IMG/VR virus record: IMGVR_UViG_3300020190_000007
Coordinates: 1-64,000 of that record
Length of the DNA: 64,000 nucleotides
Source: a virus
Direction: 5' to 3' (one strand)
In this document: one piece after another, positions 26,554 to 55,178 of the stretch
Layout of the letters: each line of letters starts with the position of its first letter
Numbering within the stretch: position 1 is the first letter of the stretch
Notes under the pieces: model-generated
Told to the model about the DNA's origin: nothing
Databases searched by the model: none
What the model saw: the letters and a program-made list of their open reading frames with translations, nothing else
Program-made: the position numbers and the translations under genes

Positions 26554-27771
26554 TTATAATATTTCAAGATTGGTGGGGGTTGGTGTTGGAGTTGGTGTTG
26601 GAGTTGATGTTACGCTTGTTGTAATAGAAGGTGTTGGAGTTGGTGTTGGAGTTGATGTTACGCTTGTTGTAATAGAAGGTGTTGGAGTTGGTGTTGGAGT
26701 TGATGTTACGCTTGTTGTAATAGAAGGTGTTGGTGTTACGCTTGTTGTAATAGAAGGTGTTGGACTAGGGGTTATATAATCACAACATTCATCCAAATTA
26801 ACTCTAAAAACTTGTTCACAACATCCTTCACAATCAATCCTTACATACATTTCCAGTAATGTTGCGGTTATACCTGTAATTTCACAAATATCCCCTGTGG
26901 TCATTCCTGTACAAGATGTTACACCTGTTATATTGGTTGATGTAATTCCCGTATAAACCGTACAATTTGTATAATTTGAACCCGAATTAAATGAAATTTT
27001 TATACCTTTTGGGGTTACCGTATCATGAACACAAGGTGCACCCAATGATGAACTTGGGGTTATTGATGGTGTAACACTCGGTGTAACAGATAGAGTAATA
27101 GATGGTGTAACACTTGATGTAACAGATGGTGTTACCGAGCTGGTTACTGACGGTGTAACAGATGGTGTTACAGAACTGGTGGGTGTTACTGATGGTAACA
27201 AATCACAACAAACTAAAGTTATAGCGACACTACTCATGGATGGTATTTGTTGGTTTCCTGAGGCGTCTAAAATATAAACTGAGGGTGCACCTGCTGCGTG
27301 CCTATTACAATCATAATTCGGATAAAAACCAGCGACTGTTACTAAAACATTTTGTTGTGCTCCTGTCGTACAATCATAGTAAACCACGTGTACACCATTA
27401 TCCAAACTTGCGGATATATCTGCATCACCAACGGTCAAATCGAATAAATGACAAAGACACTGAGATGATGTTGTCGGTGTAGGTGTTGGTGTTGGTGTGG
27501 GTGTTGGAAGGGGTGTGCAATATTCTACACCAGTTATGATACCATCAGCCATTTCAACCCTAAATACTACGTTTGGGTCGGTAGTGTAATCAATGTAGTA
27601 TCCAATAGTTGCGATACTTGTACAACCCGAGTCAGTAAAAATAGTATCACCAACACCTAATCCGACTGACCCCAAATCATCGTAATAATAATTACTCGTT
27701 GTTGCTCCAGTGCCACACGCGGCGTTTTTATCTACACCATATTTTAATGATATTGGACCCGTACACGCCAT
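26554..27771 (-). CDS. Cys-rich modular fibre/decoration protein with PT/TPSV linkers
   Basis: Three Cys-rich domains separated by Pro/Thr/Ser repeats. Confidence 0.7.
   Translation of the reverse strand: MACTGPISLKYGVDKNAACGTGATTSNYYYDDLGSVGLGVGDTIFTDSGCTSIATIGYYIDYTTDPNVVFRVEMADGIITGVEYCTPLPTPTPTPTPTPTTSSQCLCHLFDLTVGDADISASLDNGVHVVYYDCTTGAQQNVLVTVAGFYPNYDCNRHAAGAPSVYILDASGNQQIPSMSSVAITLVCCDLLPSVTPTSSVTPSVTPSVTSSVTPSVTSSVTPSITLSVTPSVTPSITPSSSLGAPCVHDTVTPKGIKISFNSGSNYTNCTVYTGITSTNITGVTSCTGMTTGDICEITGITATLLEMYVRIDCEGCCEQVFRVNLDECCDYITPSPTPSITTSVTPTPSITTSVTSTPTPTPTPSITTSVTSTPTPTPTPSITTSVTSTPTPTPTPTPTNLEIL
26582..26762. repeat. 48-bp exact tandem repeat x3 plus a 30-bp partial unit (TPSITTSVTSTPTPTP)
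   Basis: GATGTTACG recurs at 26606, 26654 and 26702. Confidence 0.9.
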
Positions 27772-27774
27772 TTA

Positions 27775-28125
27775 TTAACTTAATTGAATAACATTTATAT
27801 TAAAATCACAAGCAATGTAACAATCACTACATCTTAAATCGACCAAAGCCAATTGATATCCCCCTTGTAGTTTTGTTGCGGGTTGTGGTGTTGGGGTTAT
27901 GTGTCCATCACAGTGTTCAACAAATACAAAAATTTGAGGAATGTTATCTAATAAACTTATATTAAACGTATATCCGGTTGATATTGAAATTAATGTAATA
28001 TTACCATTTAAATAACCAGCATCATCAATGTTGTGAGTCAATCCTGTATAGATATAGTATCCACTACAAGGTGTTTTTCCCGAAAAATTTGAAATTGTAA
28101 TTTGATACTGTTTTATTGATGGCAT
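27775..28125 (-). CDS. Small Cys-containing virion protein
   Basis: 116 aa; late motif upstream. Confidence 0.65.
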   Translation of the reverse strand: MPSIKQYQITISNFSGKTPCSGYYIYTGLTHNIDDAGYLNGNITLISISTGYTFNISLLDNIPQIFVFVEHCDGHITPTPQPATKLQGGYQLALVDLRCSDCYIACDFNINVIQLS

Positions 28126-28130
28126 ATTTC

Positions 28131-28137
28131 ATAAATA
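28131..28137 (-). promoter_or_regulatory. TATTTAT putative late motif
   Basis: 5 nt upstream of ATG 28125. Confidence 0.55.
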
Positions 28138-28166
28138 TAAAAAATCATATTTTATAATCAAGTATT

Positions 28167-28859
28167 TTAAGCACATGATGCACCATCATACTCATATGGT
28201 GCTGAGTAGGCGCTTTCTCCACATGAACCCTGTATTTTAACCCTTATAAAATAATTTAATAAATATCCTGGTTCTTCAAGGTTTCTAGTCACTGTATTTC
28301 CAGAACCACAACCAGCGGTATTCGTGAGACCCCAAATTGCACCATCTTGTGAGAATTGTATGGTACTCAGATTACAACCACTACATCCTATTATACTAAA
28401 TGTAACGTCTATTGTACCACCAGTTGATGGACACACACTTTGAATTACAGGTGTGGTACACGCACAAGAAGGAGTTGGGGTAATTGTTGGGGTAATTGTT
28501 GGGGTTGGGGTAATTGTTGGAGTAATTGTGGGGGTTGGGGTTATTGTGGGGGTTGGGGATGGACTAACACATACGGTTTGGACATCGAAACACATTGTAT
28601 CATAACATGGGAATGCTTTACTATCGTGAGTGTAAATATTTTTAATGATATACCTACCTGTAGTTTGGTCCGTCATTTTTATCCAAAACTGTGTATCGAA
28701 TGAAAGCCCACTGATTGTAACTGTGGTTGCTGTTAATCCTGTATTATATAAAGTAAAAGTCGAATCATTAGTTTCGGGATATGGGGAATCCCCTGACTTA
28801 TATCTTATCGAATAATTACCGTCGGATACAATATTATATATTCTTACATTTAATCCCAT
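28167..28859 (-). CDS. Two-domain (Fn3-like) virion protein with PT linker
   Basis: TVTISGLSFDTQF and YFIRVK...ESAYSAP Fn3-like signatures. Confidence 0.6.
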   Translation of the reverse strand: MGLNVRIYNIVSDGNYSIRYKSGDSPYPETNDSTFTLYNTGLTATTVTISGLSFDTQFWIKMTDQTTGRYIIKNIYTHDSKAFPCYDTMCFDVQTVCVSPSPTPTITPTPTITPTITPTPTITPTITPTPSCACTTPVIQSVCPSTGGTIDVTFSIIGCSGCNLSTIQFSQDGAIWGLTNTAGCGSGNTVTRNLEEPGYLLNYFIRVKIQGSCGESAYSAPYEYDGASCA

Positions 28860-30634
28860 TATGTTGTTACGTCAGATGTTATATAGATTATTATAGAGTT
28901 TGTACTATCAGGTATAGTATAAGAATCATTTATAGAACCTGTGCCGCAACTTGACTCTGTATTTGTTTGAACAATTGTTCCATTTCTTTCTATAGAGTAT
29001 GTTATACTACTACAAGAATACCCTAACGCACTACACTCTGAAGTTATTCCCAACGCGTCCATGCTTAATGTAATTATGTCACCCACATATGTTGTTGTTG
29101 TACCACTATAAATACCGACAGATAATGGAGTATTCCAAGTATAGAAAGTTGTTCCGTTTTTCTGTACATTACCAAATGTTCTTGAACAAGAATTTAATTT
29201 CTGATGTTGGTGAACCATTGTTATGGTAATAATACTCGGAGTTGGGGTCGGGGTTAAAGATGGTGAAGGAGTTGGTGTTTTTGATGGTGTGATTGATGGT
29301 GTTACAGTAATTGAAGGTGTTACCGAAACTGTTGTATCAGGAGTTTTTGACGGTGTAGGTGTTTTTGATGGTGTGATAGATGGTGTTTTTGTTACCGTAG
29401 GTGTTATTGTTGGAGTAATTGTTGGGGTAATTGTTGGAGTTGGTGTTTTTGTTACCGTAGGAGTTGGTGTGATTGATGGTGTTGGGGATGGTGACGGTTG
29501 TGGTGTTGGGGTTGCGATTAAATAACTAACAGAATTAGTACAAGTTCCAACACTTTGTATTGTACCACCTGTAATTGGACTACATACTGTTGTAGTATAT
29601 CCTGAAAGTAGTTGTGCGTTTGTTACATTAGTGGCAATTAGTACTATTGTTCCTCCCGTTGTTGTTCCCGATATATCGTAAGGACCTGCTTGTGTTAAAA
29701 AATAAATTTCTTGTAACGAGAATGTATATTGAGCACAACCCGGAGTTAATGACGGGGTTGGAGTAACGGACATTGTTGGTGTGGGTGTTTTGGTGGGTGT
29801 TACTGATGGGGTAATTGTAACACTTGGTGTGATAGTTGGTGTAACTGATGATGTTGGTGTTACTGATGGGGTAATTGTAACACTTGGTGTGATAGTTGGT
29901 GTAACTGAATTAGTTGGGGTTACAGATGGTGTAACACTTGGGGTTGGTGTTGGGGTAACAGATGGACATGATACGACACAAACACTACCCATATTAACCG
30001 CAACACCAGTGTAAGGTAATACCCAATTTAAACACACTTCTGTTCCAATACCTCCAACACCTGTTTGGTAAACACCACAACAATCAGTATAATACCAAGT
30101 ACCAGACGTATCAATCACACCGTCATAACAAACAACTGTTGGGGTTGGTGTTGGGGTGGGTGTCATTGTTGGGGTGGGTGACGGAGGGTTTAAACAACTA
30201 GCACAATCTGTGAATAGTGAGCCTGATTCAATTAATTCTGTAACAGTATAATTGTAATTAGTACTACCGGTACCTTGTTCATAACCTCCTATATAGTTGT
30301 AACACGTACCATCATAAGAAATTGTGGCACCTGTACTTTCAAAGTATTGATTAACCTCAGAATTTTTTAATCCAAAGTAAAGAGGGGGGGTACCAGGAAA
30401 TTCACAATGTTCAAATTCCCACCCATTAAAATCATCATTACATTGTTGACAAGTTGTATAACCTGTAAAAATAACTAAACCCGGTGTTGTCGTGCCTGTT
30501 GTACTCGTTGCGGTCCAACATTTATAATCACCAAAAATTATACTTCCTGGTGTAATAACGGAGGTATCAACATCAAAGTGTTTTGTTGTTCCTGTGTTAC
30601 CACATAATTCAAAAAGTATTCTTTGTATCGGCAT
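28859..30634 (-). CDS. Cys-rich modular fibre protein with three PT/TPS stalks
   Basis: CxxC modules, YTDCCG module and TP repeats. Confidence 0.7.
29796..29908. repeat. 60-bp period duplication within a TPS stalk
   Basis: GGTGTTACTGATGGGGTAATTGTAACACTTGG repeated at a 60-nt offset. Confidence 0.85.
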
Positions 30635-30675: not shown

Positions 30676-33600
30676 TTATGCACACGACGTACTACATGCC
30701 GTACAATTTGCACATGTTTGTGCACGTTGTGTGAGTGATGAGAATTGAGCGAAACCACCAGGAACAAACAAAGTATTACCTACAACATTTAACATACATC
30801 GAGTATCAGTTGTTGCGTTTGTAAATGTTTCAGTAATGAAAGTTCCATCACAACATTGATAATATAGAATAACTGAACCAGATTGTAAAATATCATCATC
30901 ACTTATTTGAATATCAAAACAATAACATTCACCACAGGCACCCAATTGGACTACCACCCCAAAATGCGGCCCTCCTACGGTTGGGGTATTACAAGAACAA
31001 ATTTCAAGTTGACCACCGTTAACATCCCAATATGTTGGGTCATTTAATTGTTCTGTTTGACTATTACAACAGTTAGTATATTCAACAAAATTTTCCGCGT
31101 ATAATTCATTTATAAAATATTTTTCACACGAGCATGGTGGTGATGGTGTTGGGGTTGGGGTTGGTGTTCGGGTCGGTGTAGGAGTTACTGACCTAGTAGG
31201 AGTTACAGATGGTGTAACAGAAGGTGTTCTACTTGGCGTAACACTCGGTGTTCTACTTGGTGTAACAGAACTTGTAGGAGTTACAGATGGGTCTACTTTT
31301 AGAGATGCAGATGGTGTAACACTCGGTGTTCTACTTGGTGTAACACTCGGTGTTCTACTTGGTGTAACTGAACTAGTGGGTGTAACACTCGGTGTTCTAC
31401 TTGGTGTAACACTTGGTGTAACTGAACTAGTGGGTGTAACACTCGGTGTTCTACTTGGTGTGACACTTGGGGTTTTTGTTGGTGTAGGTGTAACTGAAGG
31501 ACATACTATATGAGTTTCCGATTGACACAACGCGCAACTATCATATTTTAAAGTTAAAATTGGTCCTGCGTCAGGTCCGTAATCAACAAAAGTTGCACAA
31601 ACTTGTGCTGTTGGTATGTACCATACTGAACCGAAGGGTGCTCCAAGTGGTAACCTCGCATTATAAATTGTGGTATCACCAGGACAACAAGAAGAAAAAT
31701 ACGCACCAAAATATTGTGGACTTGGTGATGGTGTTACACTTGATGTTGGTGTTAATGATGGTGTAACACTTGGTGTAACCGATGGTGTAACACTTGATGT
31801 TGGTGTAACACTTGGTGTTCTACTTGGGGTGACACTCGGTGTAACAGAACTTGTAGGAGTTACGGATGGTGTTCTACTTGGCGTAACACTCGGTGTAACA
31901 GAACTTGTAGGGGTTACGGATGGTGTTCTACTTGGGGTGACACTCGGTGTAACAGAACTTGTAGGAGTTACGGATGGTGTTCTACTTGGCGTAACACTCG
32001 GTGTAACAGAACTTGTAGGGGTTACGGATGGTGTTCTACTTGGCGTAACACTCGGTGTAACAGAACTTGTAGGGGTTACTGAAGGAGTAACACTCGGAGT
32101 TACTGATGGTGTAACAGAACTTGTAGGTGTAACAGATGGTGTTCTACTTGGCGTAACACTCGGTGTAACAGAAGGTGTAACAGAACTTGTAGGTGTAACA
32201 GATGGTGTAACACTTGGTGTTCTACTTGGCGTAACACTCGGTGTAACAGAACTTGTAGGAGTTACAGATGGTGTTCTACTTGGCGTAACACTCGGTGTAA
32301 CAGAACTTGTAGGGGTTACGGATGGTGTAACAGATGGTGTAACTGATGGAGTAACTGAACTAGTTGGGGTGACGGATGGTGTTCTACTTGGTGTCACCGA
32401 TGGAGTAACGCTTGATGTGGGTGTTAATGATGGAGTAACAGATGGTGTTCTTGACGGTGTGATGGAAGGTGTAACAGAACTAGTTGGTGTGATAGATGGT
32501 GTAACACTTGGTGTAACCGAAGGTGTAACACTTGGTGTAACAGAACTTGTAGGTGTAACTGAAGGTGTTACGGATGGGGTAACACTTGGTGTAACAGAAC
32601 TAGTTGGTGTGATAGATGGTGTAACACTTGGTGTTCTTGACGGTGTAACAGAACTTGTAGGTGTTACTGAAGGTGTTACTGAAGGTGTAACACTTGGTGT
32701 GACAGAACTAGTAGGAGTTACTGATGGTGTAACTGAAGGGGTAACACTTGGTGTTCTACTTGGTGTAACAGAACTTGTAGGTGTAACTGAAGGTGTTACA
32801 GATGGTGTAACACTTGGAGTTACTGAACTAGTAGGTGTAACACTTGGTGTTCTACTTGGTGTAACAGATGGTGTAACAGAACTTGTAGGTGTTACTGAAG
32901 GTGTTACTGAAGGTGTAACACTTGGTGTGACAGACGGAGTTACCGATGGTGTAACTGAAGGTGTTATGCTCGGAGTTACGGAAGGTGTTACAGAACTTGT
33001 AGGTGTTACAGATGGTGTTCTACTTGGGGTAACGGATGGTGTAACAGATGGTGTAACAGATGGTGTGACACTTGGTGTTACCGATGGTGTTACCGATGGT
33101 GTAACACTAGATGTTGGTGTAACACTTGGTGTTCTTGATGGTGTGATTGACGGTGTTACCGAACTAGTAGCAGTAACTGAAGGTGTAACACTTGGAGTCA
33201 CGGATGGGGTTACTGAACTAGTTGGTGTAACGGAAGGTGTTCTTGACGGTGTGATAGATGGGGTTACACTCGATGTTGGTGTGATAGATGGAGTAACAGA
33301 TGGAGTAACAGATGGAGTTACTGAACTACTTGGTGTTACTGATGGTGTAACACTTGGTGTAACCGATGGAGTTACTGAACTAGTGGGGGTTACTGAAGGA
33401 GTTCTTGAAGGTGTAATAGAAGGTGTAACGCTTGATGTTGGTGTAACTGATGGGGTAACTGATGGGGTAACACTCGGAGTAATAGAACTAGTTGGTGTAA
33501 CGGATGGGGTAACTGATGGAGTTACTGATGGAGTTACTGAACTACTCGGTGTTACCGACGGAGTAACTGAAGGAGTAACACTTGGTGTTCTTGATGGTGT

Positions 33601-36600
33601 TACCGACGGAGTGATTGATGGGGTTACCGACGGAGTGATTGATGGGGTTACAGAAGATGTTGGTGTAACTGATGGTGTGACACTTGGCGTAACTGATGGT
33701 GTGACAGAACTTGTAGGAGTTACTGAAGGAGTTCTTGAAGGTGTAATAGAGGGTGTAACGCTTGATGTTATTGATGGTGTTACTGATGATGTGACACTCG
33801 GAGTAACCGAAGGTGTAACTGAACTGGTTGGTGTCACCGATGGTGTAATAGATGGGGTAACTGATGGAGTTACAGAAGGTGTAACTGATGGTGTAACACT
33901 CGGAGTTTTACTTGGTGTGATAGATGGTGTAACACTAGATGTTGGTGTAACTGATGGTGTAACAGATGGTGTAACACTTGGAGTTACAGAAGATGTTGGT
34001 GTCACCGATGGTGTAACACTTGGTGTAACTGAACTTGTTGGGGTAACAGATGGTGTCACTGATGGAGTGACTGACGGGGTTACCGAAGCGGTTACTGATG
34101 GTGTAACAGAAGGTGTTCTACTTGGTGTAATAGATGGTGTGACAGAACTAGTGGGTGTGATTGATGGTGTTATAGAGGGTGTTACCGAACTTGTTGGAGT
34201 TACAGATGGTGTTACGGATGGTGTTATTGATGGTGTTACAGAAGATGTCGGTGTAATTGATGGTGTGACACTCGGAGTTACAGATGGTGTTATAGATGGA
34301 GTAACGCTTGGTGTAACTGAAGGTGTAACAGATGGAGTTACAGAACTAGTAGGTGTAATTGATGGTGTAACCGAAGGTGTAACCGAAGGTGTTACGGAAC
34401 TTGTAGGTGTGACACTCGGAGTTACAGATGGTGTAACTGATGGTGTGACGCTCGGTGTAACAGATGGTGTTCTACTTGGTGTTATAGATGGGGTAACTGA
34501 AGATGTCGGCGTAACTGATGGTGTGACACTTGGAGTCACGGATGGAGTAACGGAACTTGTTGGAGTAACGGATGGTGTAACTGATGGTGTAACAGAACTA
34601 GTAGGGGTGATAGATGGTGTTACTGATGGAGTTACAGATGGGGTAACAGAACTGGTAGGTGTTACCGATGGTGTAACACTTGGCGTAACTGATGGTGTTT
34701 TACTTGGTGTAACAGATGGAGTTACAGATGGTGTGATACTCGGAGTGATTGACGGTGTTACCGAACTTGTTGGAGTAACAGATGGTGTTCTACTTGGTGT
34801 TACAGATGGTGTAACAGATGGTGTTACAGATGGGGTAACGGATGGGGTAACTGAAGGCGTTACGCTCGGGGTTACTGAACTTGTAGCGGTAACCGATGGT
34901 GTTATACTTGGAGTTACGGATGGGGTTACAGAACTTGTAGGTGTCACCGACGGAGTAACTGACGGTGTCACGCTTGGTGTAACTGATGGTGTAACACTTG
35001 GAGTCACTGATGGTGTTACAGATGGTGTAACACTTGGAGTTACTGAACTAGTAGGTGTAACCGATGGTGTTATACTTGGAGTTACGGATGGAGTTACAGA
35101 ACTTGTTGGAGTTACAGACGGAGTAACTGACGGTGTTACAGATGGTGTGATAGATGGTGTAACACTTGCGGTAACAGAAGGTGTTCTACTTGGTGTTATA
35201 GATGGTGTAACAGAACTAGTAGGTGTAACCGACGGAGTTACAGATGGTGTAACAGATGGTGTTACTGAACTAGTAGGTGTTATTGATGGTGTTATAGACG
35301 GTGTTACCGATGGAGTTACACTTGAAGTTGGAGTTACTGATGGCGTTACTGATGGTGTTACAGATGGTGTGACTGATGATGTTGGAGTGACTGAGGGTGT
35401 AACAGATGGTGTAACACTAGATGTAACTGATGGTGTGACACTCGGAGTAACTGAAGGGGTAACAGATGGAGTAATAGATGGAGTTACAGACGATGTTGGA
35501 GTAACACTCGGAGTTACAGACGGTGTTACCGATGGAGTAACTGAACTAGTGGGCGTTACCGATGGTGTGACACTAGGTGTAATCGATGAAGTAACTGATG
35601 GGGTTACAGAAGGGGTTACAGAAGGGGTTACAGAAGGGGTTACAGAAGGGGTTACGCTCGGTGTAACTGAAGATGTTGGCGTAACCGATGGTGTGGTACT
35701 TGGGGTAACTGATGGTGTAACTGACGATGTAACACTAGGTGTAACTGATGGTGTGACACTCGGAGTAACTGAAGGGGTAACACTTGGGGTTACTGAACTT
35801 GTTGGAGTCACCGATGGTGTTATACTTGGAGTTACGGATGGGGTTACGGATGATGTCGGTGTTACTGATGGGGTGATAGAAGGTGTGACAGATGGGGTTA
35901 CGGAACTAGTTGGTGTGACACTCGGAGTTACACTTGGGGTCACCGAGCTGGTTACTGACGGTGTTACAGAAGAAGTTACAGATGGTGTAACTGATGGTGT
36001 TATTGATGGTGTTACAGAACTAGTAGGTGTAACTGATGGGGTGATAGATGGGGTAACACTTGGCGTAACAGAACTAGTTGGTGTAATTGAAGGAGTTACT
36101 GAAGGAGTTACTGAAGGAGTTACTGATGGAGTTACTGAACTAGTAGGAGTGACAGAGGGTGTTACTGATGGAGTTACAGATGGGGTAACACTTGGTGTAA
36201 CAGAACTGGTGGGAGTGACAGAGGGCGTTACAGAGGGTGTTACTGATGGAGTTACTGATGGGGTAACACTTGGTGTAACAGAACTAGTAGGTGTAACGGA
36301 AGGTGTAACAGATGGTGTTACACTTGGTGTAACCGATGGTGTAACCGATGAAGTGGGAGTTACTGATGGTGTAACACTTGGTGTAACAGAACTAGTAGGT
36401 GTAACGGAAGGTGTAACACTAGCAGTTACTGAAGGTGTAACAGAACTAGTTGGGGTCACTGACGGAGTAACACTTGGAGTCACCGAAGGTGTAACAGAAC
36501 TAGTAGGAGTTACAGAGGGTGTTACTGATGGAGTTACGGATGGAGTTACAGATGAAGTAGGAGTTATTGATGGTGTAATAGATGGGGTAACACTTGGTGT

Positions 36601-39498
36601 AACAGAACTAGTGGGTGTAACGGAAGGTGTAACAGATGGTGTTACACTTGGTGTAATGGAACTAGTAGGAGTTACAGAGGGTGTTTCAGATGGTGTAACA
36701 GAAGGTGTAACAGATGGTGTAACACTTGATGTTGGTGTTACTGATGGTGTAACGCTTGGTGTAACGGACGGTGTAACTGATGATGTTGGTGTTACACTTG
36801 GTGTAACGGAAGGTGTAACGCTTGGTGTAATAGAACTCGTAGGAGTTACAGATGGGGTTATTGATGGTGTAACAGATGGGGTTACAGACGATGTGGGTGT
36901 GATAGAAGGGGTAACGCTCGCGGTCACCGATGGTGTAACTGAACTAGTGGGGGTTACTGATGGTGTAACACTCGGAGTTACTGAGGGTGTGACAGATGGG
37001 GTAACACTTGATGTAGGTGTTAGTGATGGTGTAATAGAAGGTGTAACACTTGGTGTAACAGATGGTGTGGTAGATGGGGTGACAGAACTTGTCGGTGTAA
37101 CACTTGGTGTAAGACTTGGGGTTACTGAAGGAGTAATCGATGATGTTGGTGTTACTGATGGAGTTACGGATGGTGTAACAGATGGTGTAACAGAACTTGT
37201 TGGGGTGATACTAGAAGTTACTGATGGTGTTACCGAGCTGGTTACTGACGGTGTTACAGATGGTGTCACGCTCGGTGTTACGGAAGGTGTCACAGAACTA
37301 GTTGGTGTAACACTTGGTGTAACAGAAGGTGTTACTGATGGCGTAACAGAGGATGTAGGGGTTACAGATGGTGTAACACTCGGAGTTACTGAAGGAGTAA
37401 TCGATGATGTTGGTGTAACACTCGGTGTAACACTTGGTGTTTCAGATGGTGTAACACTCGGTGTAACTGAACTTGTAGGTGTTACTGATGGTGTAACAGA
37501 TGGTGTAATAGACGGTGTTACCGAACTAGTGGGGGTTACTGATGGAGTTACGGATGGCGTAACAGATGGTGTAACTGATGATGTTGGTGTTATACTTGGT
37601 GTGACCGACGGTGTAACTGATGGAGTTACAGAACTAGTAGGTGTTATTGATGGTGTTATAGACGGTGTTATTGAACTAGTAGGTGTTACTGATGGTGTAA
37701 CAGACGGTGTAACAGACGGTGTTACGGAACTAGTAGGTGTAACAGATGGTGTAACGCTTGGTGTGACCGATGGTGTGACAGAACTAGTGGGAGTTACAGA
37801 AGGTGTAACTGACGGAGTGACCGATGGTGTAACAGAACTAGTAGGGGTCACCGATGGTGTTTCAGATGGTGTGACTGAACTAGTTGGTGTCACACTAGGA
37901 GTTACTGAAGGTGTTATACTTGGTGTCACAGAAGACGTTGGTGTAACGGAAGGTGTGATGCTTGGTGTAACAGACGGTGTTACTGAACTAGTAGGTGTAA
38001 CAGATGGTGTAACACTTGGTGTAACACTCGGAGTTACTGAAGGAGTAATCGATGATGTTGGTGTAACACTCGGTGTAACACTTGGTGTTTCAGATGGTGT
38101 AACACTCGGTGTAACTGAACTTGTAGGTGTTACTGATGGTGTAACAGATGGTGTGACTGAACTGGTTGGAGTTACTGATGGTGTAACAGACGGTGTAACA
38201 GACGGTGTAACAGAACTAGTTGGAGTCACAGAAGGTGTTACGCTAGGTGTTTCAGATGGGGTTACAGAACTAGTTGGTGTAACGGAAGGTGTAACACTTG
38301 GTGTAATAGATGGTGTAATAGAACTAGTGGGAGTCACAGAAGGTGTTACGCTAGGTGTTTCAGATGGTGTAACGGAACTAGTGGGAGTTACTGATGGTGT
38401 AACAGAAGGTGTTACCGATGGTGTTACGGAACTAGTGGGAGTTACAGATGGTGTTTCAGATGGTGTAACAGAAGGTGTAACGCTCGGAGTTATTGACGAT
38501 GTTGGAGTAATTGAGGGTGTAACACTTGGAGTTATTGAAGGAGTTACCGACGATGTTGGTGTTACAGATGGGGTAACACTTGGTGTTTCAGATGGTGTAA
38601 CACTTGGTGTAACTGAACTAGTCGGGGTTACAGAAGGTGTTTCAGATGGGGTAATAGATGGTGTAGCACTTGGTGTAACAGAACTAGTTGGTGTAACAGA
38701 TGGTGTTACACTCGGTGTAACCGAAGGTGTAACAGAAGATGTAGGAGTTACAGAAGGTGTAACACTTGGTGTAACCGATGGTGTAACTGAACTAGTAGGT
38801 GTTACTGATGGTGTTTCAGATGGTGTAACACTTGGTGTAACTGAACTAGTTGGAGTTACAGAAGGTGTTTCAGACGGGGTAATAGACGGTGTAACACTTG
38901 GTGTAACAGAACTAGTAGGTGTTACTGATGGTGTAACAGAGGGTGTTACACTTGGTGTAATGGAACTAGTAGGTGTTACAGATGGTGTAACAGAGGGTGT
39001 TACTGATGGTGTAACACTTGGTGTAACCGATGATGTTGGTGTTACTGATGGAGTTACTGATGGTGTAACACTTGGTGTTATTGAACTAGTAGGAGTTACA
39101 GAAGGTGTAAGTGATGGGGTGATGGAAGACGTGGGGGTTACTGATGGTGTTTTAGATGGTGTGATACTCGGAGTTACGGATGGTGTAACACTTGGTGTAA
39201 CTGAACTAGTGGGTGTAACACTTGGTGTTCTACTTGGTGTAACAGAAGGTGTTACTGATGGTGTTTGTGTTAATGTTGGTGTAGGTGTGGGTGAAGGAGT
39301 GGGACAAGGAATTTCAGCCACACAGGTTTTATCCAGTGATGGAAAATAAATTGAGTAAGTACCTAAATAATAGTTTGTTTCGTAATAATATGGCATTAGG
39401 ACGGAACCTAAATTTATGGTACCGCCAGTACAAGGATAAAATGTAATGTCACCGATTTCCTCATTAAAATTACCCGCGTTTATTTTTATTAATGCCAT
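30676..39498 (-). CDS. Giant mucin-like Thr/Pro/Ser/Val repeat protein with Cys-rich C-terminal modules (putative long fibre)
   Basis: 65-aa N-domain, ~2500 aa of [10 protein letters not shown], Cys-rich tips; non-repeat ends are protein-like only on this strand. Confidence 0.85.
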   Translation of the reverse strand: MALIKINAGNFNEEIGDITFYPCTGGTINLGSVLMPYYYETNYYLGTYSIYFPSLDKTCVAEIPCPTPSPTPTPTLTQTPSVTPSVTPSRTPSVTPTSSVTPSVTPSVTPSITPSKTPSVTPTSSITPSLTPSVTPTSSITPSVTPSVTPSVTPTSSVTPSVTPSVTPSVTPSVTPTSSITPSVTPSVTPSVTPTSSVTPSVTPSITPSETPSVTPTSSVTPSVTPSETPSVTPTSSVTPSVTPSVTPSVTPTSSVTPSVTPSVTPSVTPTSSVTPSATPSITPSETPSVTPTSSVTPSVTPSETPSVTPSVTPTSSVTPSITPSVTPSITPTSSITPSVTPSVTPSETPSVTPTSSVTPSVTPSVTPSVTPTSSVTPSETPSVTPSVTPTSSITPSITPSVTPSVTPTSSVTPSETPSVTPSVTPTSSVTPSVTPSVTPSVTPTSSVTPSVTPSVTPTSSVTPSVTPSETPSVTPSVTPTSSITPSVTPSVTPSVTPSVTPTSSVTPSVTPSITPSVTPTSSVTPSITPSVTPSVTPTSSVTPSETPSVTPTSSVTPSVTPSVTPSVTPTSSVTPSVTPSVTPSVTPTSSVTPSVTPSVTPSVTPTSSITPSITPSITPTSSVTPSVTPSVTPSITPTSSVTPSVTPSVTPSVTPTSSVTPSITPSVTPSVTPTSSVTPSVTPSETPSVTPSVTPTSSITPSVTPSVTPSVTPTSSVTPSVTPSVTPSVTPTSSVTPSVTPSVTPSVTPSVTSSVTPSVTSSITPTSSVTPSVTPSVTPSVTPTSSITPSVTPSLTPSVTPTSSVTPSTTPSVTPSVTPSITPSLTPTSSVTPSVTPSVTPSVTPSVTPTSSVTPSVTASVTPSITPTSSVTPSVTPSITPSVTPTSSITPSVTPSVTPSVTPTSSVTPSVTPSVTPSVTPTSSVTPSVTPSVTPSETPSVTPTSSITPSVTPSVTPSVTPTSSVTPSVTPSITPSITPTSSVTPSVTPSVTPSVTPTSSVTPSVTPSVTPSVTPTSSVTPSVTASVTPSVTPTSSVTPSVTPSVTPTSSVTPSVTPSVTPSVTPSVTPTSSVTPSVTPSVTPSVTPSVTPSVTPTSSVTPSVTPSVTPSVTPSVTPTSSVTPSVTPSVTPSVTPSITPTSSVTPSVTPSITPSVTPTSSVTPSITPSVTPSVTSSVTPSVTSSVTPSVTPSVTPTSSVTPSVTPSITPSVTPTSSVTPSVTPSITPSVTPTSSVTPSVTPSVTPSVTPSVTPSVTSSVTPSVTPSTTPSVTPTSSVTPSVTPSVTPSVTPSVTPSVTPSVTSSITPSVTPSVTPTSSVTPSVTPSVTPSVTPTSSVTPSITPSVTPSVTPSVTPSVTSSVTPSVTPSVTPTSSVTPSVTPSVTPSVTPTSSVTPSVTPSITPSITPTSSVTPSVTPSVTPSVTPTSSVTPSITPSRTPSVTASVTPSITPSVTPSVTPSVTPTSSVTPSVTPSITPSVTPTSSVTPSVTPSVTPSVTPSVTPSVTPSVTPSVTPSVTPTSSVTPSVTPSITPSVTATSSVTPSVTPSVTPSVTPSVTPSVTPSVTPSRTPSVTPTSSVTPSITPSITPSVTPSVTPSKTPSVTPSVTPSVTPTSSVTPSVTPSVTPSITPTSSVTPSVTPSVTPTSSVTPSVTPSVTPSVTPTSSVTPSITPSRTPSVTPSVTPSVTPSVTPSVTPTSSVTPSVTPSVTPSITPTSSVTPSVTPSVTPSVTPSITPSVTPSVTPSITPTSSVTPSITPSVTPSVTPTSSVTPSITPSITPTSSVTPSITPSRTPSVTPSVTASVTPSVTPSVTPSVTPTSSVTPSVTPSVTPTSSVTPSVTPSVTPSVTPTSSVTPSITPSKTPSVTPSVTPSVTPSVTPSITPSVTPTSSVTPSVTPSVTSSVTPSITSSVTPSITPSRTPSVTPTSSVTPSVTPSVTPSVTPTSSVTPSITPSVTPSITPSVTPSRTPSVTPSVTPSVTPSSSVTPSVTPSVTPSVTPTSSITPSVTPSVTPSVTPTSSVTPSITPSRTPSVTPTSSVTPSVTPSVTPSVTPSSSVTPSVTPSVTPSITPTSSVTPSITPSRTPSVTPTSSVTPSVTPSVTPSVTATSSVTPSITPSRTPSVTPTSSVTPSVTPSVTPSVTPSVTPSVTPSVTPSRTPSVTPTSSVTPSVTPSITPSVTPSVTPSVTPSVTPSVTPSVTPTSSVTPSVTPSRTPSVTPTSSVTPSVTPSVTPSVTPTSSVTPSRTPSVTPSVTPSVTPTSSVTPSVTPSVTPSVTPTSSVTPSRTPSVTPSITPTSSVTPSVTPSVTPSVTPTSSVTPSVTPSVTPSVTPSITPTSSVTPSITPSRTPSVTPSLTPTSSVTPSVTPSRTPSVTPTSSVTPSVTPSVTPSVTPTSSVTPSVTPSRTPSVTPTSSVTPSVTPSRTPSVTPSVTPTSSVTPSVTPSVTPSRTPSVTPTSSVTPSVTPSVTPSVTPTSSVTPSVTPSRTPSVTPTSSVTPSVTPSRTPSVTPTSSVTPSVTPSRTPSVTPTSSVTPSVTPSRTPSVTPTSSVTPSVTPSRTPSVTPTSSVTPSVTPSVTPSLTPTSSVTPSPSPQYFGAYFSSCCPGDTTIYNARLPLGAPFGSVWYIPTAQVCATFVDYGPDAGPILTLKYDSCALCQSETHIVCPSVTPTPTKTPSVTPSRTPSVTPTSSVTPSVTPSRTPSVTPTSSVTPSRTPSVTPSRTPSVTPSASLKVDPSVTPTSSVTPSRTPSVTPSRTPSVTPSVTPTRSVTPTPTRTPTPTPTPSPPCSCEKYFINELYAENFVEYTNCCNSQTEQLNDPTYWDVNGGQLEICSCNTPTVGGPHFGVVVQLGACGECYCFDIQISDDDILQSGSVILYYQCCDGTFITETFTNATTDTRCMLNVVGNTLFVPGGFAQFSSLTQRAQTCANCTACSTSCA
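31725..39300. repeat. Degenerate 12/18-bp coding minisatellite (TPSV / TPTSSV)
   Basis: Synonymously diversified units; internal ~136-bp duplication 37371-37506 vs 38019-38154. Confidence 0.95.
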
Positions 39499-39538: not shown

Positions 39539-39567
39539 AATATATTTATTTATTTGGGTATTGTCAA
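39539..39567 (-). promoter_or_regulatory. sigma70-like promoter upstream of the giant fibre gene
   Basis: TTGACA-N17-TATATT. Confidence 0.65.
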
Positions 39568-39588: not shown

Positions 39589-42500
39589 TCATGGACAATC
39601 AAAAATGGAACTACTTAATTCCTCATTAGTTGGTTCTGTAGGACAATGGTTGGCATCGATATAATATTGACCGAGGTTGAATCCAATATTTGGATGTTTA
39701 TCATATTTGTGTTTCATCAGAATTTTGTCACTGTTGTTTCCGTTAAAAACAACAACAAATTCATCATCTATTGGTGTATTGTCTAATTCAAAGTTTAGAT
39801 TGAAGTATAATCCTGTATCGCAATAATTTAAATCGACATCAATTACTTCTATGGTTTCACCATATTTGTTTATTAAATAATCTCCGTGATTGTATAATTC
39901 TTTCGGATGGTCGCAACAAGGTTCAATAAAATCTATTGGTTTTTTCTGTAATTCCTCAGGAAATCTGTCGTCAAAAAAGTAAACACTATTTGTTGGTGTC
40001 CCAAAATTTTCAATAATTCTATTTGTATAAACTCTTAGTTGTGTTGTTGGTAAAACTTCAAAAACTTCATAGGTGTTATTTTGGGTCAATCCCGTGATAA
40101 TACTTTTCTTTATTGATGCTAAACATTCAATATCCGTGATTTCAAGTTTTTGATAGTTGTACGTAAATGAATATCCTGATACAGGACCATTAACAATTTG
40201 TTGGTGACTATATTCTGTACATTGTTTATATGAAGCGGATAAAACATATTCCCCAACATTTAAATCACAAACACTTTTACCACTTATCGTACCACCACTA
40301 ATATAACTTTCAATATTACTATCGGTTGTTTGGTCATCAATGGTTAACCCACTATTAACCACCAAAACAATAGAGTCACATTTTAGCCCATAGTTAAAGT
40401 TTGATTTGTATTGTACTTTTGGTTGTATAGTATAACCCGTGTAATTGTCACAGTATGTTGCACCTGAAACAACTGAAATTGGTGAAGCGATTGTTCCTTG
40501 GTAACCAACAATACTGAATAACTCTACGTGACTCTTTCCTGATGGTGTTGGACATGGGTCATGTTCAATTTTGGGTTGTAGACCTTCTATTTTGAATTTT
40601 ACTTCTTTATTCGCAGCATCTACAATATTGAAATCTATTACATCATTTTCTGAAACACCAGTTAATTTGTATACACAATCACTAACTTTTTGAATGTGAA
40701 CATCCGCATTTTCATTTGTTCCACTCACACAGTTAGCATAAATGTTAAATGGCCATGTTGAACCTTGTTGAATTCCTGTTTTATACCCAATTACCTCAAA
40801 AAATACATCACTTACTAAAGTGCACCCACTATTTGAGTCACAGTAAACGGTATTATCAGTATAAACTTTAACACTGATTCCATGTGTATTTTTTGTAATT
40901 TTATAATCAGCATCAAATCGATAATCAAAATAGTCAACCACCGAACATTCGTTTGGTCCTAATTTTACGGATGAAAACTTAACTTTTTCGACACCATTTT
41001 CATCAGTGTATGTTGTGTATTTTATTAATGGTATTGTTTCTGAAAAATATGTTTGACCAGTGGTTCCCGTGAAAGCGGAATAGGGTTCATATCCCGCGCT
41101 ATTTCTTGTAATAGTTACGTCATCAATCAATACAGATAATGCCGATAACCATAATTCTTTAATTTTAGTAACATCAGGTTCAAGATAATCTTTATAATCA
41201 CATATTAAGGAAAGATTTACAGTATCACCACTTGTTACACCACTCGTACATCCTGTAAATGGTTGTGCGTCAAATAATTTTGCACTATTTGAAGTGTTAC
41301 TTGTTCCACTAACAATTACATACATGGAAGATGTTAGTCCTGTGTAATTAGCACCACCATAAACTGTTCCGTCAATTTCAATTACCGGATAATAAGTAAC
41401 ACCGGTAAGGTTTATTAAACCTCTGAAATTATTTTCTTCGCCTAAAATGTTTTCTAAATCTTCTTCGATTACGTTTTCAAAATCAGGGTATAATTCCTCG
41501 ATAAATTCTAATGGTTGGCAATCATATCTATATTGATATTTTGGTCTACCAAAAACGTTATTTTCAATTAAATTACCACCAGTCCATTGAGTGGTTGATG
41601 GTACTAATTGTTCTACTAATTGTGGCCAATATGGAGATAATTTATTTACAAATTCAGTGACATTTATTTGGTTATATGGTGTGAAACCTGTGGTTTGTGA
41701 AATATAATCTCTATAAACATCCTCTAACTGTATATAATTTTTATTGTAACGAATTTTGTTTGAATTAGTTACAAGACTATGAATAAATGTGTCTAAAAAT
41801 TCAGCAAAAGTTTTACCTGTTTGAGGTAATAAAGTATTTGTACCAAAACTTATTAATAATTCTCTACTTTGTCTAAATATATCATAATCTATACCTCGTG
41901 ATGGTGAGATATAAATTCCAATATTTTTTCTATTTAAAATTAATAAATAATCATCTTCAATTGGTTTTCCGTCTTTATTATCAACAGCAGACACCAATTC
42001 ATAACCTGTATCTAAACCCGGTAATGTTCTATATAAATCAAAATATTCTTCTCCGTATGTATAGTTTTTATTCTTTGTTTTAATTGTTTTAGTGTTACCC
42101 GTCAATATTGAGTTACTACTATCTAAAACAAGTGGAGAACGATGTGATAATGTAATATCGTACCATCCTGAACCTTTACCAAAGAAAATGTTTTCAGTTT
42201 CATTATATGCTCTTCTTGGTAGTCCAGTTTTTTCGTCTACGGGGTAACCCTCTCTATCAAATGTTGTTGATGCTGAGTAGTAAACTTTAGAGTATGTGTA
42301 ACCTGTGCTGTCAAAAGTTGCATAGGAATATCTTTTACTACCTTGAATCGCGTCGTATATATCTTGTTGTAAATTAAAACTAGACGGTATCGATGTGACT
42401 TTATAAATATACTCATCGATTCTAATTAAAGGTTCTGGTGCTCCTAAAAATTTCAAAAAGAAATCAATAGAAGATTTTGTTCCTTTTGATTTATAAATGT

Positions 42501-43833
42501 GTGCGAGATTTATTAATAATCTTCGATAAAACTCATATTCAGATTCAATTAAATTAGTGCCGGTTGACACACCGTCATAGTTTGATTGTAACCTTGAATA
42601 TAAAACATCATTTAAGCTATTCTCATCAAATAAATTTAATGTAGATAAACCTAAATTTTCTGATAAATTCTTTAAAAGTACATCGGGTAGATTATTAATA
42701 CCATCATAACTTACATTTCTCATTTGAGCTATGTTGTCTATATACTTCTTTACACTATCAAAACTTTGTCCGTATAGTTCAAATATACTTTCAGCCCTTT
42801 TATCTTCAGTATCAAATTCAAATAATTGTGGCGCAGCTAAAAATCTGACCATCAAATTAGATTTGTATCCATCTATTTCATCAGCAATGTCTTTTAATTT
42901 ACTAACGTATAAATCGAAATAAAACCCTGTTATTTCTATATTGTAACCATCTTCAGATATTGGCCAAGTTATTACCACATCAACCAAAGATGTTTTTGAA
43001 TTATCTTCAACATCTTTAGGTACTTTAAATGAAGAGGTATAAATTGGATTTGTGTCTCTATTTAAAAGTGATTCTTCTAAATCATCTAATCCTTCAAAAA
43101 ATTCTTCAACTAAACCATCATTTGGTCTTATTAATAAGTTTTCTGAATATGTTGTACCAGTAAATGGTTGTCCATATACTTTTAAGTAAATTCTGTTGTT
43201 TATATTTGGTTCAATATAATCTAAAATTGGATATGATGTGTTATTGGTAATAACAACATATTTTGTATATGACGAATAAAAATTTCTTAATTCGTTTTCA
43301 GTTTCTGGTTTAACCACAGAATTAGGTTCTATAAAAACTAAATTAAACGGATTAAATATTTTGCTTCTTTCAATGTAAAAAGTAGTGGTGTTGGTGCTAT
43401 CATTATATGTTATTCCACTAGCACTAAAATTAGAAACACCAATAGGGGTGTCTGATAAAATCGAAATTGCACCCGGAAACTTATTAATAATTCGAGTTAG
43501 TGAAACTAAAATTCTATCTGTTAATGAACCAAATAAAGATTTATCGGCATATTTTTTGTTACCCTTAAATCTTACTTCGTCAGTTCTTTTTTTTGAAGGT
43601 TTTACAGATGTTGTTTGAATACCTTCAACTTCCTTTAACGTATCTAATGTTAAAAATTGAGAGAATGGATTACTTGTAAAATTTTTAGAATCTTTATCAG
43701 GAATAGACTTATCAAGCGCAAATACGGTGTTAGTTAGTGCAGATGAACCATCGGTTATCTGTCTACCAACTAAGAAATCATTAAATGTTTCAGCTCCGCT
43801 TGACGCTTGACTAGGTACTTTTCTCCTTGCCAT
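39589..43833 (-). CDS. Large baseplate wedge protein (P2 gpI/gp7-like central motif)
   Basis: LPDVLLKNLSENLG...YRRLLINLAHIYKSKGTKSSI. Confidence 0.65.
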   Translation of the reverse strand: MARRKVPSQASSGAETFNDFLVGRQITDGSSALTNTVFALDKSIPDKDSKNFTSNPFSQFLTLDTLKEVEGIQTTSVKPSKKRTDEVRFKGNKKYADKSLFGSLTDRILVSLTRIINKFPGAISILSDTPIGVSNFSASGITYNDSTNTTTFYIERSKIFNPFNLVFIEPNSVVKPETENELRNFYSSYTKYVVITNNTSYPILDYIEPNINNRIYLKVYGQPFTGTTYSENLLIRPNDGLVEEFFEGLDDLEESLLNRDTNPIYTSSFKVPKDVEDNSKTSLVDVVITWPISEDGYNIEITGFYFDLYVSKLKDIADEIDGYKSNLMVRFLAAPQLFEFDTEDKRAESIFELYGQSFDSVKKYIDNIAQMRNVSYDGINNLPDVLLKNLSENLGLSTLNLFDENSLNDVLYSRLQSNYDGVSTGTNLIESEYEFYRRLLINLAHIYKSKGTKSSIDFFLKFLGAPEPLIRIDEYIYKVTSIPSSFNLQQDIYDAIQGSKRYSYATFDSTGYTYSKVYYSASTTFDREGYPVDEKTGLPRRAYNETENIFFGKGSGWYDITLSHRSPLVLDSSNSILTGNTKTIKTKNKNYTYGEEYFDLYRTLPGLDTGYELVSAVDNKDGKPIEDDYLLILNRKNIGIYISPSRGIDYDIFRQSRELLISFGTNTLLPQTGKTFAEFLDTFIHSLVTNSNKIRYNKNYIQLEDVYRDYISQTTGFTPYNQINVTEFVNKLSPYWPQLVEQLVPSTTQWTGGNLIENNVFGRPKYQYRYDCQPLEFIEELYPDFENVIEEDLENILGEENNFRGLINLTGVTYYPVIEIDGTVYGGANYTGLTSSMYVIVSGTSNTSNSAKLFDAQPFTGCTSGVTSGDTVNLSLICDYKDYLEPDVTKIKELWLSALSVLIDDVTITRNSAGYEPYSAFTGTTGQTYFSETIPLIKYTTYTDENGVEKVKFSSVKLGPNECSVVDYFDYRFDADYKITKNTHGISVKVYTDNTVYCDSNSGCTLVSDVFFEVIGYKTGIQQGSTWPFNIYANCVSGTNENADVHIQKVSDCVYKLTGVSENDVIDFNIVDAANKEVKFKIEGLQPKIEHDPCPTPSGKSHVELFSIVGYQGTIASPISVVSGATYCDNYTGYTIQPKVQYKSNFNYGLKCDSIVLVVNSGLTIDDQTTDSNIESYISGGTISGKSVCDLNVGEYVLSASYKQCTEYSHQQIVNGPVSGYSFTYNYQKLEITDIECLASIKKSIITGLTQNNTYEVFEVLPTTQLRVYTNRIIENFGTPTNSVYFFDDRFPEELQKKPIDFIEPCCDHPKELYNHGDYLINKYGETIEVIDVDLNYCDTGLYFNLNFELDNTPIDDEFVVVFNGNNSDKILMKHKYDKHPNIGFNLGQYYIDANHCPTEPTNEELSSSIFDCP

Positions 43834-54575: not shown

Positions 54576-54576
54576 A

Positions 54577-55029
54577 TTATATATTAATAATTACAAAATC
54601 GGACGAAACAAAAGGTTCATTATTTATGTCATAGTCAATTCGAACTTTTGCAGTATAGGGTTTTGTTGAAAAATCAGAGACTCTAAACAATCTTGAATCC
54701 TCATCTTCTTGTGGACTAATAGGTTCTTCAGGTTCTTGGTCAGCCGGGGTTACTCTGATAGATTTTATTTCTAAATTTGGGATATATTTTTTTACTGATG
54801 TTCTAATTTCATCCTCTATTTGTCCCCACGTAACAGCGTCGTTTGGTTCAAAAATAAATTCAATTAATTTAGTTCCAAAATCGGGTAAATAATATCTCGT
54901 ACCCTTTCTTGTTAATAATAAGTGAATTAAGTTTGCACGAATCTCCCTTTCAGGGGTTTCGGTCATAACCAAAAAATCACCCTTAGGACTAATTCTGAAT
55001 GGAAAATCTATACCATATGTAATCGCCAT
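54577..55029 (-). CDS. Baseplate wedge subunit gp25/GPW-like
   Basis: GIDFPF, LLLTRKGTRYYLPDFGT; start moved to ATG 55029. Confidence 0.88.
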   Translation of the reverse strand: MAITYGIDFPFRISPKGDFLVMTETPEREIRANLIHLLLTRKGTRYYLPDFGTKLIEFIFEPNDAVTWGQIEDEIRTSVKKYIPNLEIKSIRVTPADQEPEEPISPQEDEDSRLFRVSDFSTKPYTAKVRIDYDINNEPFVSSDFVIINI

Positions 55030-55033
55030 ACTA

Positions 55034-55040
55034 ATAAATA
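55034..55040 (-). promoter_or_regulatory. TATTTAT putative late motif
   Basis: 4 nt upstream of ATG 55029; second copy at 55061-55067. Confidence 0.55.
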
Positions 55041-55066
55041 TAACTAAACAACAAATACTAATAAAT

Positions 55067-55092
55067 AAAAAATCCCAACCTAAGTTGGGATT
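55067..55092 (-). terminator. Intrinsic terminator after nrdA
   Basis: AATCCCAAC/GTTGGGATT stem followed by T-run. Confidence 0.8.
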
Positions 55093-55178
55093 ATATATTG
55101 TTTGATTTTTTTGCTCTTGTATAATCAAACAAAGTAGATGTATTGTTAATTATAAAATGTCAATGGAGCCACCTACAG

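Follow-up and report, generated by a model that had tools for sequence, protein, structure and literature searches.

A giant phage protein with a mucin-like Thr/Pro/Ser/Val stalk, a candidate long-reach tethered adhesin

Introduction

What would a phage do with a protein of 2,940 amino acids, most of it a single low-complexity stalk, and is the gene that encodes it real? The question is raised by the first 64 kb (64,000 nucleotides, hereafter the window) of IMG/VR record IMGVR_UViG_3300020190_000007, a viral contig of 170,860 b that CheckV rates as 55% complete and that is labelled G000 here. An earlier reading made from the letters alone (the sequence-only reading) had singled out this gene and proposed a very long flexible capture filament or glycan brush. 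We find that the 2,940-amino-acid gene is real and that its stalk peptide is under purifying selection, and we propose, with confidence about evenly balanced, that its product is a virion-anchored, disordered, possibly phage-glycosylated mucin-like tether presenting binding modules, and thereby a long-reach adhesin.

Results

Layout of the protein

The open reading frame (ORF) occupies exactly positions 30676 to 39498 of the minus strand. Its product begins MALIKINAGNF, finishes CSTSCA and divides into the parts listed below, in agreement with the anatomy given by the sequence-only reading, namely a small N-terminal domain, a Thr/Pro/Ser/Val tract, a Cys domain, a second stalk and Cys-rich tips.

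30676..39498, minus strand: whole giant gene, 2,940 amino acids plus stop
39301..39498, minus strand: N-terminal domain (N-domain), residues 1-66, 3 Cys, putative virion anchor or adaptor (immunoglobulin-like (Ig-like) model, orthologue conservation)
31744..39276, minus strand: stalk 1, residues 75-2585, 2,511 amino acids uninterrupted, [10 protein letters not shown] (composition windows)
31474..31743, minus strand: 'QY..CCPGDT' module, residues 2586-2675, 90 residues, 6 Cys (sliding-window parse)
31162..31473, minus strand: stalk 2, residues 2676-2779 (~105 amino acids), TPSV/TPSR linker (sliding-window parse)
30679..31161, minus strand: C-terminal Cys-rich domain, residues 2780-2940, 158-161 amino acids, 16 Cys, putative binding tip (AlphaFold2 model)

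Thr (25.7%), Ser (25.3%), Pro (20.7%) and Val (16.6%) dominate the composition, the first three making up 72% of the protein, and Gly contributes 0.8%. Stalk 1 is assembled from TPSV (339 copies), TPTSSV (101), TPSI (54) and TPSR (24) units plus minor variants, with a Pro every 4 or 6 residues; the units often form an 18-residue (54-nucleotide) super-repeat, which Tandem Repeats Finder detects as well. A charge gradient runs along the stalk (31744-39276, minus strand), TPSE units being confined to the proximal ~1,000 residues and TPSR units rising distally, with 10 Arg in the last full 250-residue bin. No signal peptide was seen on inspection of the N-terminus, as had been said before: residues 1-20 hold E13, E14 and D17 and have no hydrophobic core.

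At the other end, residues 2929-2939 (30682-30714, minus strand) finish in C-x2-C-x2-C-x3-C, the spacing of a ferredoxin-type 4Fe-4S motif. The same terminus is found in homologues P0002 and P0005, and the relative G004 (288 kb, 92% complete) has C-x3-C-x3-C-x3-C instead. This Cys-terminus may hold a metal site or form a disulfide knot.

The opposite strand carries a 2,559-amino-acid ORF made of GVTD/GVTL repeats (31670..39349, plus strand). It was rejected as a gene and attributed to a mirror artefact of the repeat, because the switching of Ser codons between TCN and AGY is silent in the minus frame and gives D/E versus L in the plus frame, because amino-acid entropy is lower in the minus than in the plus frame, and because the minus ORF alone is bounded by non-repetitive sequence and runs in the same direction as the neighbouring genes.

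Integrity of the repeat and selection on the stalk

DNA copies of the repeat are degenerate, with 60-85% matches in Tandem Repeats Finder. Within the window no 150-mer of the ORF is repeated, and just 1.4% of its 100-mers occur twice. One 18-residue peptide is present in 44 copies, no two of which share a DNA sequence; the mean DNA identity between pairs of copies is 0.749 (0.436 at third positions) versus 0.728 (0.425) expected for random synonymous codons. Since this identity lies near the random-codon level, the peptide has been kept constant while its silent sites became saturated, which is purifying selection on the stalk peptide. The opposite signature would be expected of a repeat that slippage had expanded recently, or of an assembly in which it had collapsed or been inflated. 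The reading frame stays open over 8.8 kb despite the saturated synonymous sites, and the codon preferences of the giant gene equal those of the neighbouring genes.

Independent assemblies were also compared. The metagenome contig L095 (3.7 kb) is protein-identical to the window gene over the distal 355 residues; its stalk shows 4 substitutions and one clean 18-residue indel, that is, one super-repeat, before the contig stops inside the repeat. In relatives the gene reaches 16,419 nucleotides (5,472 amino acids), and this longer version is base-identical in two assemblies, its first 9.9 kb being identical in 13 contigs from different samples. The G002 assembly departs from it by an indel of ~250 nucleotides and a frame break. 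Such breaks divide the gene into 4,267+1,144 amino acids in G002 (locus L085) and 4,688+638 amino acids in G006 (locus L137, where a run of N lies away from the break), and may stem from errors in sequencing or assembly, from pseudogenisation or from phase variation. Contigs of several relatives stop inside the stalk, and assemblies often break at the giant gene. An assembly-inflated repeat, which the sequence-only reading had named as fatal to its account, is largely excluded by the lack of repeated 150-mers, the codon scrambling and the identical independent assemblies.

Conserved N-domain and diverging tips

The N-domain has 23 invariant columns among 12 orthologues. AlphaFold2 predicts a six-stranded beta unit, an Ig-like sandwich, with a predicted local distance difference test (pLDDT) score of 77-88 over the block. 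Its nearest structures are generic Ig- or fibronectin type III (FN3)-like folds, none outstanding (best Z 6.1, root mean square deviation (rmsd) 2.5 A over 64 residues), and the fold search returned no viral match at E <= 0.001. Hoc-like decoration proteins combine Ig-like domains with a domain that binds the capsid; for a comparison with them the N-domain offers these generic matches and no Pfam or PHROG hit. C-terminal domains of type IX secretion system (T9SS) substrates are among these structural neighbours (Z 5.8-5.9, rmsd 2.6-2.7 A, 62-63 residues); this likeness of the modelled domain (39301-39498, minus strand) appears indistinguishable from generic Ig-like similarity, and is curious given the predicted Bacteroidota hosts. 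In distant relatives (P0017-P0020, metagenome proteins from ENA, JGI and Logan), an N-domain of 49-55% identity is followed by a short Pro/Thr (PT) linker and a globular protein of ~1,700-2,000 amino acids, for which no known family was matched. The N-domain therefore behaves as a portable adaptor.

The C-terminal domain is modelled as all-beta, in two halves of ~70 residues resembling small beta-sandwiches (pLDDT 87, predicted template modelling score 0.78). A search of 1.84 billion representatives recovered 15 homologues, all short, which are most likely contig-end fragments of the same family; the Cys framework is conserved among homologues. No close relatives of the window allele's C-terminus were found in IMG/VR. 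The fold search with the model gave nothing at E <= 0.001 with Foldseek against PDB and a best Z of 3.8 in the wide VIA-align search. Pfam and PHROGs returned nothing assignable for the gene's neighbours or over all modules, the 'QY..CCPGDT' module included, phrog_15511 appearing to match the PT linkers themselves, and ESM Atlas scores stayed below 0.9 and pointed to unnamed clusters.

Between alleles, identity falls along the protein, from 81-88% in the N-domain to 43-47% in the middle module and 28-33% at the C-terminus. The distal binding role implied by the earlier idea of a capture filament fits this conservation gradient; the span that had been given for the filament needs revision, as set out below.

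Stalk alleles and the variable cassette

Relatives were gathered through the 1,414-amino-acid flank gene (75 IMG/VR loci), and orthologues of the giant gene were recognised by their N-domain. The genes concerned are the following.

39589..43833, minus strand: 1,414-amino-acid flank gene, upstream, left cassette border, 96.5% identical in G004
26554..30634, minus strand: four downstream cassette genes (591, 230, 116 and 405 amino acids), small Cys-bounded domains, divergent versus G004
24283..26433, minus strand: 716-amino-acid gene, right cassette border, 96% identical in G004

An orthologue directly follows the flank gene in 24 of the 75 loci, and in a 25th (L074, N-domain 45% identical) a gene with the N-domain lies upstream of the flank gene. 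In the group with a 97% identical flank gene, the gene encodes the 5,472-amino-acid protein with the same N-domain and with a stalk in two segments (669 and 4,022 residues), built of TPTN/TPTNTV units and made up of 45% T, 20% P and 14.5% N; the stalk is followed by the CCPGDT module, by a further segment of 207 residues with 16 Cys, which has no counterpart in the window, and by a C-terminus 37% identical to that of the window allele. At 78% flank identity, L018 encodes 2,737 amino acids with TPTV/TPTI/VTPSTS units, and G006 has a TPSV/TPSI/TPTSSV allele of ~5,280 amino acids in total. The chemistry of the stalk is thus allele-dependent ([13 protein letters not shown]). Its length in relatives goes from about 1,950 to 4,700 residues, and that of the whole protein, which the sequence-only reading had proposed to compare, from 2,737 to 5,472 amino acids. 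A conserved island within the stalk, PAPSCDIDYT[MR]LPSPTP, occurs in L083 (G004 residues 758-781) and L018 (601-628) and is absent in the window allele.

Relatives with <=68% flank identity have no giant gene, and the interval between the 1,414- and 716-amino-acid genes holds varying 'bead' genes or flank-gene extensions. At 47-60% flank identity (L037, L043, L045, L050-L059), where there is no giant stalk gene, the '1,414-aa' gene is extended C-terminally to ~1,970-2,895 amino acids.

Comparison of the window with G004 delimits the variable region sharply: the genes on either side of the cassette are 94-98% identical and the five cassette genes are divergent, the four smaller ones measuring 591 versus 854, 230 versus 283, 116 versus 122 and 405 versus 973 amino acids (domain gain or loss). 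By this gene-by-gene comparison, the giant gene heads a hypervariable cassette of predicted fibre genes.

The exact 16-residue stalk motif was found in 37 stretches among 2.9 million viral contigs, several of them in the same clade. Other viral contigs with long TPSV-type frames are L104 (1,079 amino acids of pure stalk, cut at both ends), L108, L112 (2,535 amino acids, complete), L117 and L123, the last with a C-terminal domain of 41% identity. On these sequences, the giant-stalk design may be more widespread than this phage clade.

Disorder and reach of the stalk

AlphaFold assigned no secondary structure to the first 70 residues of the stalk (pLDDT 47-58). This coil prediction, together with the scarcity of Gly, bears out the earlier statement that the stalk is unlike trimeric beta or collagen-like fibres. 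A folded trimeric shaft, whether beta-helix, coiled coil or collagen-like, disagrees with the Pro (20.7%) and Gly (0.8%) contents and with the predicted coil; a collagen-like fibre was rejected also on the repeat units, which contain no Gly. On this model we propose that the stalk acts as an intrinsically disordered tether and has some polyproline-II character.

The radius of gyration (Rg) of denatured chains scales as Rg = 0.193 N^0.598 nm. By this scaling, the 2,511-residue stalk has an Rg of ~21 nm and a root mean square end-to-end distance of ~51 nm; treated as a worm-like chain whose persistence length is 3-15 nm, as expected when a chain is rich in Pro or glycosylated, it has an end-to-end distance of 68-153 nm. 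The span of 600-750 nm given by the sequence-only reading comes near the contour length (778-904 nm at 0.31-0.36 nm per residue), but the expected reach is about 50-150 nm. Values for the 4,691-residue allele are 74 nm by scaling and 93-209 nm as a worm-like chain, with a contour of ~1.5-1.7 micrometres. The stalk modelled in this way would be a flexible line, sampling a sphere of ~0.1 micrometre and extensible to nearly a micrometre, not a rigid 0.7-micrometre filament.

A common linker vocabulary and a capacity for glycosylation

The sequence of the stalk is not confined to the giant protein. PT/TPSV linkers join the domains of the 591-, 230- and 405-amino-acid cassette proteins, the last one with the same [10 protein letters not shown] motif, and a 640-amino-acid protein encoded next to the tail sheath gene (G000 83015-84937; L138:7016-8938, minus strand) has a ~150-residue TPSVTPTSS-type linker and a C-terminal PT tail. 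To judge from these proteins, PT linkers are a general feature of the phage's virion gene modules. As the same linker is present in neighbouring proteins, the giant stalk can be regarded as a hyper-expanded version of the phage's standard interdomain linker.

The stalk contains 1,383 Ser and Thr residues but only 27 Arg and Lys, too few for trypsin to make it visible in proteomics. The Bacteroidetes O-glycosylation sequon D-[ST]-[AILVMT] was found 0 times in the stalk and once in the whole 2,940-amino-acid protein; host-type O-glycosylation of the stalk was rejected on the lack of the sequon there and of a signal peptide. Matches to glycosyltransferase family 2 (GT2) above the Pfam cut-off number four in G000 and seven in G004. 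The window starts with the following cluster, in which two unassigned ORFs precede the named genes (99-3982, plus strand).

1498..3982, plus strand: GT2 glycosyltransferase, FkbM-type methyltransferase and NAD-dependent sugar epimerase/dehydratase genes, candidate glycan supply (family matches)

O-glycosylation of the stalk is plausible on this gene content. Given the absence of the host-type sequon, phage enzymes acting in the cytoplasm would be the likely agents, if the stalk is glycosylated. Mycobacteriophage virion proteins have been reported to be glycosylated by phage-encoded glycosyltransferases (Freeman et al. 2023, as cited in PMC12582341).

Gene neighbourhood and source phage

The giant gene is co-directional with its neighbours, from which it is separated by gaps of 41 and 90 nucleotides. 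Two further features lie upstream of it.

39539..39567, minus strand: sigma-70-like match TTGACA-17-TATATT in the 90-nucleotide gap upstream of the ATG, best of the 20-kb region, a weak hint
52743..55128, minus strand: gp6/J-like and gp25-like baseplate wedge genes (PHROGs), same strand as the giant gene

The number of sites in the sigma-70 promoter and terminator scan equals that expected by chance. PHROGs assigned the wedge genes separately as gp25-like (54577-55128) and gp6/J-like (52743-54575), and the sheath and tube genes lie further along the same contig. The placement of the giant gene inside the baseplate module, as the sequence-only reading had it, is roughly right with respect to the upstream wedge genes on the same strand; the gene itself is the first of the variable fibre cassette further down. 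Other PHROG assignments are a ribonucleotide reductase, a DnaB-like helicase, SbcCD, a primase, a prohead protease and a sigma factor. ARAGORN found four tRNAs on G000 (Leu-TAA, Arg-TCT, Met-CAT and Gly-GCC; contig 131633-132878).

A bS21 gene (PF01165 above cut-off) is present in G000 and in G004. Bacteroidetes hosts have been predicted for freshwater phages that encode bS21 (PMC9723584), a paper in which the giant gene is not mentioned. By gene content, the source phage is in keeping with these published phages and with predicted Bacteroidota hosts. Among GenBank phages, tblastn gave no match to the N-domain, the C-terminus or the 1,414-amino-acid flank gene; the nearest deposited relatives of the baseplate protein are an uncultured 484-kb phage, Flavobacterium 'immuto' phages and a Microcystis phage, at 25-29% identity.

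Discussion

A conserved adaptor, a disordered spacer, fast-evolving tips and a position in a variable cassette together lead us to the tethered adhesin proposed at the outset. The conserved Ig-like N-domain would attach the protein to the fibre apparatus of the tail or baseplate, the Thr/Pro/Ser/Val chain would act as a disordered tether, and the distal Cys-rich beta-sandwich modules would bind a ligand of the host surface. The tips could explore a volume that reaches tens to ~150 nm out from the virion, or about 0.8 micrometres at full stretch. They might pass between the polymers of a capsule or slime layer and keep the particle close to the cell until the baseplate has found its receptor. 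Phage GT2 enzymes may O-glycosylate the stalk in the cytoplasm, which would make it stiffer and protect it from proteases. The spacer itself is selected for composition and length, not for exact sequence.

Several points weigh against the tethered adhesin. An Ig-like N-domain, as modelled here, is not the usual anchor of a fibre and would be more at home in a decoration protein. None of the modules matched a family or fold known for receptor binding, for lectins or for carbohydrate binding. The GT2 genes lie apart from the giant gene and could serve other targets, and none of the four tRNAs found on this 55%-complete contig serves the Thr, Pro, Ser or Val codons of the stalk. The full repeat count of the window allele depends on one assembly, and the frame is broken within the stalk in two of the six full-span orthologue assemblies (G002 and G006). 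Virion attachment, the anchoring end, ligand binding, glycosylation, copy number and oligomeric state are all matters that we infer.

One alternative is a polymer brush or decoration on the virion surface. The protein would then act as a steric or hydrodynamic shield of the tail or baseplate against proteases, grazers or non-specific sticking, or would adhere loosely to slime and particles, much as Ig-like decoration proteins do to mucus, its Cys modules being generic sticky or cross-linking ends. The Ig-like fold of the N-domain, the mucin-like composition and the phage GT2 genes agree with such a role, as does the free variation of stalk chemistry and length between alleles, which suggests that bulk properties outweigh sequence. 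A brush would not, however, require distal modules that are conserved in type across alleles, and the tips are folded, keep their Cys framework and diverge rapidly, as specific binders under diversifying pressure do, in a gene that sits in a host-range-type cassette. We consider this alternative unlikely, though worth keeping in mind.

Packing of TP[ST]x chains into a regular multi-chain fibre, as a polyproline-II-type bundle or trimer, would instead give a stiff rod of hundreds of nm, in line with the span given by the sequence-only reading. Most phage fibres are trimeric, the super-repeat of 18 residues and the 4/6-residue period beneath it are highly regular, and the peptide is under strong purifying selection. 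Yet Gly, at 0.8%, offers none of the residues needed for tight polyproline-II or collagen packing, AlphaFold2 predicts coil at low confidence, the differing fourth residues (V, N, I) and the irregular order of units argue against a packing register, and neighbouring proteins use the same sequence as a short linker between domains. The chance that the stalk is such a rod is small.

It is likewise improbable that the protein is not part of the virion, being made late and released at lysis or otherwise displayed, for example to serve as matrix, as decoy or in aggregation. Searches of structural families gave no match that would put it on the virion, but it is encoded co-directionally among tail and fibre genes with gaps of 41 and 90 nucleotides, its linker vocabulary is common to the protein encoded beside the sheath gene, and it has no signal peptide. 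Finally, an assembly artefact or decaying pseudogene, whose length would be biologically meaningless, could explain the many relatives' contigs that stop inside the stalk, the frame breaks in G002 and G006 and the single assembly behind the window allele's full length, but is very improbable in view of the absence of a repeated 150-mer, the identical independent assemblies of the 16.4-kb orthologue, an 8.8-kb frame that is open at saturated synonymous sites, and terminal domains that are conserved in the same order in all alleles.

The tethered adhesin can be extended, tentatively and with more doubt than belief, to a novel principle of host capture. The fibre would then be a single disordered, phage-glycosylated, mucin-like polymer of 2,000-4,700 residues (contour 0.6-1.7 micrometres), a fishing line with Cys-rich hooks; codon-scrambled DNA would keep a repeat of 8-16 kb stable; and near-identical phages would swap whole stalk alleles (Ser-Val, Thr-Asn or Thr-Val/Ile, of varied length), which would give them a second axis along which host range or the evasion of defences varies.

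The accepted picture of a phage fibre is a folded and in most cases trimeric rod, with a length fixed by its structure. Should the protein prove to be part of the virion, phages would also use disordered mucin-type polymers, of up to 5,472 amino acids, that rival the largest bacterial adhesins. It would then offer a tractable natural case for the dependence of capture radius and capsule penetration on tether length, a case of phage-encoded protein glycosylation in Gram-negative, Bacteroidota-infecting phages, and a case of natural synonymous scrambling that stabilises very long repeats, as synthetic biologists design. The giant repeat gene also accounts for frequent assembly breaks in an abundant group of lake phages.

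Comparison with known systems

The giant gene is like those of classical phage tail fibres in its genomic position, in having a conserved proximal and a variable distal end, and in belonging to a recombining host-range cassette. Unlike the shafts of classical or collagen-like fibres, its own is not a trimeric beta-helix, a coiled coil or a Gly-X-Y triple helix, and no phage fibre family was matched in Pfam or PHROGs. Hair-like appendages have been described as capsid fibres of Tenacibaculum phage PTm1 and as tail hairs of Erwinia phage Y3 (review PMC13282480). These too are large phages, one with a Bacteroidota host, that bear thin flexible appendages; tblastn of the N-domain, the C-terminus and the flank gene against GenBank phages found no sequence link to them. 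The literature searched contained no description of a giant PT-stalk phage protein, and on that search a fibre or adhesin whose shaft is disordered and of mucin type is a design not described for phages.

At the scale of the repeat, the nearest likeness is with the PT-box linkers of glycoside hydrolases such as CenA and Cex of Cellulomonas fimi, which are PT-rich, often O-glycosylated and typically 20-100 residues long. Both are extended PT-rich sequences that join beta-sandwich modules, but the phage stalk has 2,511 residues, and up to about 4,700 in relatives.

Serine-rich repeat adhesins such as Fap1, GspB and Srr (2,000-5,000 amino acids) have SX dipeptide repeats, a special signal peptide, an LPXTG motif and accessory Sec genes. 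The phage protein is of similar size and, like them, has a very long low-complexity Ser/Thr stalk that distances a binding region from the anchoring surface. Their stalk is modified by cytoplasmic glycosyltransferases before display, to which the GT2 capacity would be the phage counterpart if the stalk is glycosylated. Membership in this group was rejected, as the units are [10 protein letters not shown] (TP[ST]x tetra- and hexapeptides) and not SX, with neither LPXTG nor signal peptide; the binding modules of the phage protein are moreover C-terminal and unrelated, and there are no accessory Sec genes.

Gel-forming and tethered mucins, for example MUC2, have Pro/Thr/Ser tandem-repeat domains flanked by Cys-rich domains. 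The Cys modules of the phage protein gave no Pfam match to the vWD, CysD or cystine-knot domains of mucins. The phage protein differs also in being made in the bacterial cytoplasm, without signal peptide or secretory pathway, and in having Val as the fourth major residue. It is like a mucin in its Pro/Thr/Ser tandem-repeat core of a few thousand residues, which is extended and non-globular and has small Cys-rich globular domains both within it and at its end.

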